Shown: in pieces, positions 49,846 to 51,969 of the stretch | Numbering within the stretch: the stretch's first letter is position 1 | How the letters are laid out: each line of letters opens with the position of its first letter | Origin: Candidatus Woesearchaeota archaeon | GTDB lineage: Archaea; Nanobdellota; Nanobdellia; Woesearchaeales; ARS49 | Assembly (NCBI GenBank): GCA_016203225.1 | Contig: JACQNC010000006.1 | Coordinates: 8,552-72,551, forward strand | Reading direction: 5' to 3' | DNA length: 64,000 nt | Position numbers and translations under genes: made by a program | The notes under the pieces: model-generated | Told to the model about the DNA's origin: nothing | Database searches by the model: none | The model's input: the letters and a program-made list of their open reading frames with translations, nothing else

Positions 49846-49919
49846 GGGGCTGTGGTCTAACTTGGTTATGACTGAAGGTTCGGGACCTTCAAATCCCGGT
49901 TCAAATCCGGGCAGCCTCA
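49846..49919 (+). tRNA. tRNA-Pro (anticodon CGG)
   Basis: Acceptor GGGGCTG/CAGCCTC (one G-U) plus discriminator A. Anticodon arm GAAGG-TTCGGGA-CCTTC. T arm CCCGG-TTCAAAT-CCGGG. Confidence 0.88.
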
Positions 49920-49981: not shown

Positions 49982-50611
49982 ATGATCAATCCGCGCTATC
50001 TCCAAACGACAGTCCTCGCACGCCTGCGGAAACGGTACGCTGCGAACAAACCCTTTCCCCATGCGCAGCTCAAGGACTTCTTCGATGTGAAACAACTCCG
50101 CAAAGTCAAACACGCTCTGCTGAACGAGCGATTCGTCGAAGCGGAAGCGGACCTTTTCTCATTCCAGCAGTGCGATGATCTGAAGCACAGCAAGAACCGG
50201 ACACTGCGAGAATTCCGTTCATTCCTGCGTTCGCCGCGATTCCTATCATTGCTCTCCTACATCACCGGCGAGAACCTCTCGGCCACGATCGACATCTCAG
50301 GCTTCATCTACGACGACACCGACCACCTGCTTCCGCATGACGACAAGCTCGAAGGCAGGAAGCTCGCATTCGTGCTCAATCTTTCAACCATGACCGCAAA
50401 AGATGGCGGGCAACTTGACTTGTTCAAAGGAAACAATGTCGCGAAATCCTATCTGCCCGCGTTCAACTCTCTCGTCGTCTTCACGGTCAAGCCCGGAACG
50501 ACGATGCACCAGGTGCGCGAGGTGCTGACAGACGAGAAACGCATCACGCTTGCGGGGTGGATACACGGGAACGAACGTTCCCGGGTGCATGAGAACCGGA
50601 GGTCTGAGTAG
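49982..50611 (+). CDS. 2OG-Fe(II) oxygenase, OGFOD1/Tpa1/Ofd1-type prolyl hydroxylase catalytic domain
   Basis: DHLLPHDDKLEGRKLAFVLNL (HxD), GGQLDLF, NSLVVFTVKPGTTMHQVREVLTDEKRITLAGWIHG. As I recall the family signature, this closely parallels the OGFOD1 N-terminal domain. Confidence 0.7.
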   Translation: MINPRYLQTTVLARLRKRYAANKPFPHAQLKDFFDVKQLRKVKHALLNERFVEAEADLFSFQQCDDLKHSKNRTLREFRSFLRSPRFLSLLSYITGENLSATIDISGFIYDDTDHLLPHDDKLEGRKLAFVLNLSTMTAKDGGQLDLFKGNNVAKSYLPAFNSLVVFTVKPGTTMHQVREVLTDEKRITLAGWIHGNERSRVHENRRSE

Positions 50612-50614
50612 CAC

Positions 50615-51178
50615 ATGGTTAATCTCTCGGACTGGATAAACCAGACATACCTCGACAAAGGCGTCGTCGAGGAGATGCGCGCGGTCTTCGCGAAGAACAG
50701 GCAATTATTGCTTCCCGACTTCCTGTGCAAGGACTCCTACAAGCATGCGATGCGACTCGCCCGATCCGCGGCGTTCAAACGCGCGTATGTCCCTGACCAG
50801 ATGTCGTGCGCGTTCGCGATGCGGCAAGACGCGTTCCTGCGCTTCCTCGCTTCAGAGCGATTCGCGTCATATGTTCAACTAATCACAGGCACGAAATCTG
50901 GAAAACGAGCGTTCTACACCGAATTGCGCGCAAGGGACTACACAGTCATCAAGGACCTCCCCCAGACATGGAAACTCCTCACGCACCTCTTCCTGTCCCC
51001 CTGGAACGCCCACTGGGGCGGACGCATGATCTTCCGCGACGCCGAAGGCAACCACACGCACAGTCCGCCGGCGCAAAACACGTTGCTGTTGACCGGGAAC
51101 AGAAAGGGGTTGCACGGATACGTCGAATACGTCAACCATCACGCTGGAAAGAGAACGACCATCACCGCGAACGTTTAG
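50615..51178 (+). CDS. OGFOD1/Tpa1 C-terminal (non-catalytic DSBH) domain-like protein
   Basis: Begins LSDWINQTYLDKGVVEEMRAVF...LLLPDFL, resembling the WINPxYL start of the Ofd1 C-terminal domain. No HxD triad is seen. It starts 3 nt after the upstream stop. Confidence 0.55.
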   Translation: MVNLSDWINQTYLDKGVVEEMRAVFAKNRQLLLPDFLCKDSYKHAMRLARSAAFKRAYVPDQMSCAFAMRQDAFLRFLASERFASYVQLITGTKSGKRAFYTELRARDYTVIKDLPQTWKLLTHLFLSPWNAHWGGRMIFRDAEGNHTHSPPAQNTLLLTGNRKGLHGYVEYVNHHAGKRTTITANV

Positions 51179-51969
51179 CCGAACAGGCGCTGATAGTTCA
51201 GCCAGACATTGTTCGCGACTTCCTCGACCGCGAATTTCTTGACGCCTGCGATGAACTTGACGCTCTCGAGCACGTTCTTGGGCTCGTTGCGCTCGCCAGC
51301 GACCGGCCCGAGCCACGGCGAATCCGTCTCGGTGAGCAGTTGATTGATGTTGAAGACATCGCAGATCATCCTATAATGCTCCAGACGCACGCACACCGGA
51401 GGTACGCTCGCGTAAAACCCGAGATCCGCTGCTTTGCGAGCGACGCTTTTCCTGGCGCCGAAGCTGTGCAAGTCCACTTTTTTCACATTGCTGGACTCCA
51501 GCATCTCGACAGTCTCCTTCTCCGCGTTGCGGGTGTGCACGATCAAAGGCTTCTTTATCTTCTCCGCGAGATCGATGACTTTCTGGAAGTTCTGCCGCAT
51601 CACGAGTTGCAGATGCGGCTCCTTGACGAACTTGAAGTCCAGACCCACTTCACCTATGCCTATTATCCTGTCCCTCTGCGACTTGATGAATTCGAGCTCC
51701 TTGTCGAGATCGATCTTGTGCACCGGACGCGTCAATCCCGAATCGCCTTCGAGATCGAGCCCTAGCGCGTCGATCGGGTACGCTCCGAGCGCGGGTTTGA
51801 GGATTGGATCCATCTCGCAGAGCTTCAGCACCTCGCGGTTGGTCGGCTCGTTCACGCCGTTCACGATGATGGATCTCACGCCCGCGGCTTTCGCCCTCTC
51901 GACCACCTCTTTCAAGTCAGTCTTGAACAGCTCGTGCTGCAGGTGCGCGTGGACATCGACGAGGAACAT
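51175..51969 (-). CDS. tatD: TatD-family metal-dependent hydrolase
   Basis: MFLVDVHAHL..., GEVGLDF, VHTRNA, typical C-terminal TDSPWL. Confidence 0.85.
   Translation of the reverse strand: MFLVDVHAHLQHELFKTDLKEVVERAKAAGVRSIIVNGVNEPTNREVLKLCEMDPILKPALGAYPIDALGLDLEGDSGLTRPVHKIDLDKELEFIKSQRDRIIGIGEVGLDFKFVKEPHLQLVMRQNFQKVIDLAEKIKKPLIVHTRNAEKETVEMLESSNVKKVDLHSFGARKSVARKAADLGFYASVPPVCVRLEHYRMICDVFNINQLLTETDSPWLGPVAGERNEPKNVLESVKFIAGVKKFAVEEVANNVWLNYQRLFG

Follow-up and report, generated by a model that had tools for sequence, protein, structure and literature searches.

The genome of a Candidatus Woesearchaeota archaeon (assembly GCA_016203225.1; 1.0 Mb, 15 contigs, 96.5% complete) carries, in a conserved archaeal form with two genes, the OGFOD1/Tpa1-type prolyl hydroxylase known from eukaryotes. 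The two genes were found in a stretch of 64,000 nucleotides (contig JACQNC010000006.1, positions 8,552 to 72,551 of the forward strand), which is analysed here as a whole and referred to as the window. The window adds an unusual junction, in which both genes lie in one reading frame.

Hydroxylases of the OGFOD1 subfamily have been described as found only in eukaryotes (Horita et al. 2015, PMC4396695), and protein hydroxylation by 2OG oxygenases as probably widespread in eukaryotes and in many prokaryotes, with the exception of archaea (Markolovic et al. 2015, PMC4543633). The original prediction, made from the DNA of the window, that such enzymes are unexpected in archaea agrees with both papers, and a literature search for archaeal OGFOD1, Tpa1 and ribosomal oxygenases returned no paper on archaeal homologues. 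The distribution restricted to eukaryotes does not hold for the relatives found here, which belong to Woesearchaeota/Nanoarchaeia and to Poseidoniia/Marine Group III. A conserved archaeal version would overturn the statements of both papers.

The features of the locus, with positions counted from the first letter of the window, are as follows:

49846..49919, plus strand: tRNA-Pro(CGG), directly upstream of the pair
49982..50611, plus strand: catalytic subunit gene, 209 aa, predicted OGFOD1/Tpa1-type N-terminal 2OG/Fe(II) double-stranded beta-helix, with its TAG stop at 50609-50611
50336..50344, plus strand: putative HxD iron ligands His119 (50336-50338) and Asp121 (50342-50344), by residue alignment to 4nhx
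50507..50542, plus strand: putative distal iron ligand His176 (50507-50509) and putative binder of the 2OG C-5 carboxylate Arg187 in an RxT motif (50540-50542), by alignment to 4nhx
50567..50614, plus strand: lineage-specific junction insert of about 50 nt, by DNA alignment with relatives
50615..51178, plus strand: partner subunit gene, 187 aa, predicted Ofd1_CTDD-type double-stranded beta-helix without catalytic function, paralogous to the catalytic domain

Identity and distribution of the two genes

Both open reading frames were present as originally predicted, and the motifs reported for them, LLPHDDKLEGRKLAFVLNL, GGQLDLF, TMHQVREV...ITLAGWIHG and DWINQTYL, were all recovered in the translations. 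The proposed assignment of the first frame to the catalytic half of OGFOD1/Tpa1, and of the second to the C-terminal double-stranded beta-helix domain of the same proteins, was upheld by a Pfam search that matched both domains far beyond chance.

The first frame matched PF13661 (2OG-FeII_Oxy_4) with an E-value of 8.4e-22. Its nearest relative among all solved structures is human OGFOD1 (4nhx, E 1.6e-28, residues 23-201 aligned), while the PDB sequence search gave E 7.7e-14 for yeast Tpa1 and just 0.21 for Pseudomonas PPHD. Alignment to 4nhx places His119, Asp121, His176 and Arg187 of the archaeal protein on His155, Asp157, His218 and Arg230 of OGFOD1, of which the first three form the metal triad and the last is the 2OG C-5 binder (PMC4396695). 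These four residues are invariant in 26 homologues, and the arginine motif of the archaeal protein reads RIT. Tyr169 of OGFOD1, a second 2OG contact (PMC4396695), corresponds to Asn133. About 85 stand-alone catalytic homologues were found, each of about 200 aa, and some of them already carry the label 'Rps23 Pro-64 3,4-dihydroxylase Tpa1-like' from the JGI automatic annotation. These comparisons confirm the catalytic frame as a predicted OGFOD1/Tpa1-type 2OG/Fe(II) double-stranded beta-helix with intact iron and 2OG ligands.

The partner frame scored 39.4 bits against PF10637 (Ofd1_CTDD; cut-off 27), a family that was also matched by 55 of 58 partner homologues with a best E-value of 1e-24. 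A plain sequence search of the partner against OGFOD1 gave a weak match (E 0.027). The AF2 model of the partner alone, built on an alignment of 58 sequences, reached a pLDDT of 93 and a pTM of 0.88, and its best Foldseek matches were OGFOD1 (TMq 0.85), the C-terminal domain of S. pombe Ofd1 (6e0t, 0.78) and Tpa1. The search of 1.84 billion representatives with the archaeal partner profile revealed 2308 relatives. Among the best 150 of these, 145 are stand-alone proteins of 166-217 aa and five are single-chain OGFOD1 proteins of the eukaryotic type; the latter score 168-197 bits on the archaeal profile, so the archaeal and eukaryotic second domains clearly belong to one family. The partner frame is confirmed by profile and modelled fold as a predicted Ofd1_CTDD domain, the counterpart of the C-terminal domains of OGFOD1 and Ofd1.

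The two halves are also similar to each other. The partner and catalytic families are of equal size and were aligned by hhalign with 97% probability, and in joint MAFFT alignments the partner proteins were placed on top of the catalytic half, a result that itself shows the two to be paralogues. The HxD motif is absent from the partner frame of the window, where a Lys occupies the position of the first iron-ligand His. This His is retained in some other partner proteins as LLHD or LLHE, for example in the loci numbered L047, L055, L060, L064 and L070 in the survey below; a full HxD...H in register was seen in none of the partner proteins looked at.

Similar to human OGFOD1 (PDB 4nhx/4nhy), the trans-3-prolyl hydroxylase of Pro62 in uS12/RPS23, the archaeal catalytic subunit keeps the HxD...H triad and the arginine of the RxS/T motif, and the catalytic domain comes first, followed by a non-catalytic beta-helix that opens with a DWINP-YL motif. 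Unlike OGFOD1, which is one chain of 542 aa, the archaeal form consists of two polypeptides of 209 and 187 aa without a covalent linker, and the archaeal partner has the size of the catalytic domain and no acidic insert. It further differs in the Asn at the position of Tyr169 and in its archaeal host, and it is known here from sequence and models. The OGFOD1 subfamily is characterised by both domains in one polypeptide, packed via minor beta-sheets; neither the window nor the 77 evaluable relatives have them in one polypeptide.

S. cerevisiae Tpa1 and S. pombe Ofd1 (3kt1/3kt4/4nhk; 6e0t) are uS12 prolyl 3,4-dihydroxylases of the same two-domain family. In contrast to the archaeal pair, these fungal enzymes are single chains with long linkers, and their C-terminal domains bind Ett1 and Nro1 (PMC8153317, PMC5690285), eukaryotic proteins with no known archaeal counterpart. 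Pseudomonas PPHD (4iw3/4j25), a bacterial single-domain prolyl 4-hydroxylase of EF-Tu with about 200 aa, is likewise prokaryotic and similar in fold, with TMt 0.7-0.8 to one half of a modelled fused chain. It differs from the archaeal enzyme in its marginal sequence similarity, in having another substrate and in the lack of a partner gene of the Ofd1_CTDD type.

To survey the locus, one genome per prokaryotic species was scanned with the pattern [TG]D[YHF]LLPHDD, which yielded 80 loci, all of them in Woesearchaeota/Nanoarchaeia or in Marine Group III/Poseidoniales; this pattern is narrow and may have missed other lineages. Three of the 80 loci are cut by a contig end and were not evaluable. 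Both genes were detected with a broad partner profile as separate frames in all 77 evaluable loci, and they are adjacent in 76. In the woesearchaeotal locus L038 (3083-3853) the two genes do not overlap; the partner follows the catalytic gene at a distance of 768 nt, and the catalytic gene ends in GWFNN and a stop, with AAC codons and no embedded ATG.

Among 301 genomes of the phylum, 64 possess the catalytic domain, with the second gene immediately 3' in most of them (narrow partner profile). A fused frame was found in none of the 301, where every open frame encodes 170-350 aa, and in none of 201 genomes of the class Poseidoniia, 41 of which contain the partner gene, in each case with a frame that encodes about 190 aa. 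The split is a real, old and universal state of the archaeal homologues found, and not an assembly error. It had originally been considered noteworthy for this genome; the split itself is real, but it is not peculiar to this genome, and the unusual part is the form of the junction. The distribution of the pair is patchy, with presence in about 20% of genomes and in 11 of the 24 genomes of the family to which the window belongs; the gene pair is therefore dispensable and forms an accessory system.

Proposed substrate and mechanism

We lean towards reading the pair as a two-subunit, coupled uS12 prolyl hydroxylase, for which we infer a heterodimer, uS12 as the substrate and an effect on translation. 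The first gene would encode an active catalytic subunit dependent on Fe(II), 2-oxoglutarate and O2, and the second a catalytically dead paralogue that takes the place of the C-terminal domain in the single chain of eukaryotes. Co-transcription and translational coupling would ensure that both chains are made in equal amounts. The coupling would rely in most relatives on a partner ATG lying within the final codons of the catalytic gene, and in the window on a stop followed after 3 nt by an ATG, which has a Shine-Dalgarno (SD)-like GGAGGT 11 nt upstream. Paired in a heterodimer, the two chains would match the two-domain protein of eukaryotes, and this heterodimer may hydroxylate the conserved proline in the EAKQPNSA loop of uS12 at the decoding centre. 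A property of the ribosome would thereby become dependent on the supply of oxygen, iron and 2-oxoglutarate. By this reading, some very small archaea may adjust or mark their ribosomes in response to the supply of oxygen, iron or 2-oxoglutarate. Many DPANN archaea are thought to be anaerobic, which fits oddly with an O2-dependent enzyme.

The loop EAKQPNSA, and with it the target proline whose conservation had been named as a point to check, is present in the genome's own uS12. We take this loop to be nearly identical to the one around Pro62 of human RPS23. The proline is conserved in all life, so its presence is a weak, non-discriminating test of the substrate. An AF2 model of an artificial read-through chain, in which the two products are fused, folded both domains well (pLDDT 89.7), with a pTM of 0.54 from a shallower alignment. 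Its top matches were OGFOD1 and Tpa1, with E-values of about 1e-30 across both domains and an rmsd of about 14 A (4nhy, 3kt4). At this pTM and rmsd the eukaryotic packing is not reproduced, and the model neither supports nor refutes the heterodimer.

It is also conceivable, if rather unlikely, that the pair belongs to the same family and has the two-subunit form, but acts on another substrate than uS12, such as a small molecule or a different protein of the translation apparatus (aEF1A, aIF5A or aRF1, for example). Substrate changes have occurred repeatedly among the prolyl hydroxylases of this superfamily, and Foldseek also gave good TM scores to PPHD (EF-Tu) and PHD2 (HIF); nonetheless, in sequence the catalytic half is nearer to OGFOD1 than to all other solved hydroxylases, with a difference in E-value of 14 to 27 orders of magnitude. 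The loss of Tyr169 from the 2OG pocket of OGFOD1 would fit a changed substrate, whereas the retention of the family-specific C-terminal domain in all evaluable loci and a uS12 loop almost identical to the eukaryotic substrate argue for uS12. A gene for deoxyhypusine synthase is located two genes from the pair in the window and in L002-L005, but this link is local synteny, present in close relatives only.

The archaeal pair would also provide a natural experiment on the role of the non-catalytic second domain, which is here a separate minimal protein of 187 aa that could be removed, titrated or swapped.

Anatomy of the gene junction

Both frames of the window lie in one reading frame, and the junction consists of TAG (50609-50611), CAC and ATG (50615-50617), which corresponds to the 3-nt gap between TAG and ATG given in the original prediction. 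The usual junction, found in about 68 of 76 loci, is an overlap of 8 or 11 nt. In its canonical form, the partner ATG is made of the last two bases of a CAT, TAT or AAT codon (His, Tyr or Asn) and the G of the next codon. This embedded ATG is located in the final GW[FY]HG motif of the catalytic protein, and the Gly-Gly/Ala-Trp codons (GGnGGnTGG) form an SD-like purine run upstream of it. In the window, L003, L008, L009 and L038 the codon is CAC or AAC, and the partner start lies elsewhere in all five. The start is thus displaced wherever the codon cannot supply the ATG, which indicates that the choice of NAT is kept for the sake of the ATG.

The second frame is in +1 relative to the first in about 72 of 76 loci, in 0 in the window and in -1 in L008, L009 and L055. 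The NAT rule and the varied frame relations argue for separate initiation with translational coupling and against a conserved product of frameshifting or read-through. A programmed frameshift or read-through was considered as a conserved mechanism and rejected on the junction geometry and the NAT-codon rule. TAG terminates 128 of 546 long ORFs in the genome, and no tRNA with a CUA anticodon was found in the genome; TAG is an ordinary stop here, and the TAG of the junction should act as one. Recoding of TAG and pyrrolysine were rejected on the same two observations.

Very improbable, against this background, is a true product in the form of a single fused OGFOD1-like chain, made by TAG read-through in the window and by +1 frameshifting in relatives. 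The window has just TAG-CAC between two ORFs in one frame and about 72 of 76 relatives have the second ORF in +1, but the frame relation varies between 0, +1 and -1, and the genes of L038 are 768 nt apart. Every partner ORF has its own ATG at the exact domain start, and in the overlaps this ATG is kept by NAT, never CAC, which would be needless for a frameshift mechanism. The yeast enzyme itself influences stop-codon read-through (PMC8153317), whereas the archaeal loci have no common slippery motif, and TAG is a normal stop without a suppressor tRNA. It is scarcely credible that the split in the window is an artefact, or that a fused gene recently became a pseudogene through a nonsense mutation. 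One wrong base could produce the in-frame stop, but each of the 77 evaluable relatives has the split form, and their junctions show several geometries. No fused archaeal frame was found in about 500 genomes. In L003 and L009 the homologous tails likewise terminate at this position, and the second ORF has its own ATG and SD-like site. Both ORFs are full length with conserved residues.

The insert in the window follows the GWIHG codons and extends the catalytic protein by the tail NERSRVHENRRSE. A small hairpin (50567-50582), the SD-like GGAGGT (50598-50603), the TAG stop and the spacer CAC all lie within it, the GGAGGT at a distance of 11 nt from the ATG. DNA alignment revealed a homologous insert in L003-L005 and L009 and its absence from the equally close L001, L002 and L008. 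By these alignments, the junction of the window is a rare derived form.

The insert (50567-50614 in the window, 55-112 in L003, 3078-3140 in L009) is common to three lineages and has two stem-loops. In the first stem, the letters of the window and L003 differ at the same place; the second stem encloses the SD-like CGGAGGU. The z-scores of the fold are -3.9 in L003, -3.0 in L009 and -0.6 in the window. The insert might modulate the coupling, as far as the few sequences go. A copy of a genomic repeat was rejected as its origin, as pattern and blastn-short searches of the genome gave no second copy.

Origin of the pair and genomic neighbourhood

A joint tree divides the catalytic from the partner family with full support. 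In either family the eukaryotes form a monophyletic group, as do the Poseidoniia, and the two halves give matching subclades. By this tree, the duplication predates the divergence of the archaeal and eukaryotic forms, and the two genes travel together. A quick tree placed the eukaryotes among DPANN lineages. Trees constrained to archaeal monophyly were not rejected in AU tests (p 0.81 and 0.65) and in fact scored better. After these tests the position of eukaryotes within DPANN was dropped as an argument for direction, as the tree cannot tell fusion in eukaryotes from fission in archaea.

A split-first order is favoured, since a tandem duplication would be expected to leave equally sized paralogues side by side; this is an argument of parsimony and not a result. 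It opens a testable route to the eukaryotic tandem-domain enzyme, from tandem duplication via the loss of catalysis in one copy to fusion. A more comprehensive reading, which we offer tentatively and as a possibility rather than an expectation, is that the prolyl hydroxylation of uS12 is not a eukaryotic invention and that the coupled paralogue heterodimer of DPANN and Poseidoniia is the pre-fusion form of OGFOD1/Tpa1/Ofd1. Leaky termination at the in-frame TAG of this genome would then produce a trace of fused chain and so link the architecture of the enzyme to the fidelity of termination, on which its eukaryotic relatives act.

No AT-rich promoter-like stretch was found between the tRNA-Pro(CGG) and the ATG at 49982, so the tRNA and the pair may be co-transcribed. 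The tRNA-Pro(CGG) adjoins the gene pair in the window, L001, L002, L008-L015 and L024, that is, in every checked relative with at least about 47% identity, and is absent from this position in distant loci. At the pairs of relatives it is at times located on the opposite strand, and tRNA-Val(CAC) is its usual neighbour. The adjacency of a tRNA-Pro and a prolyl hydroxylase is probably mere local synteny, though a curious pairing.

Close relatives share a neighbourhood consisting of a phosphoribosyltransferase, tRNA-Pro(CGG), the pair, a convergent TatD-like gene and deoxyhypusine synthase, and their junctions are unlike that of the window. The 3' end of the partner gene overlaps the convergent TatD-like gene (51175-51969, minus strand) by 4 nt (51175-51178), and the same tail-to-tail arrangement occurs in L001 and L002. 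Many related metagenome-assembled genomes (L008, L009, L011, L013-L016 and others) are titled 'uncultured Methanosarcinales archaeon' in their records, one is titled 'Candidatus Binatia bacterium' and one 'bacterium'. These genomes of about 1 Mb have a Woesearchaeota-like gene content and synteny, and their titles look like automatic mislabels.
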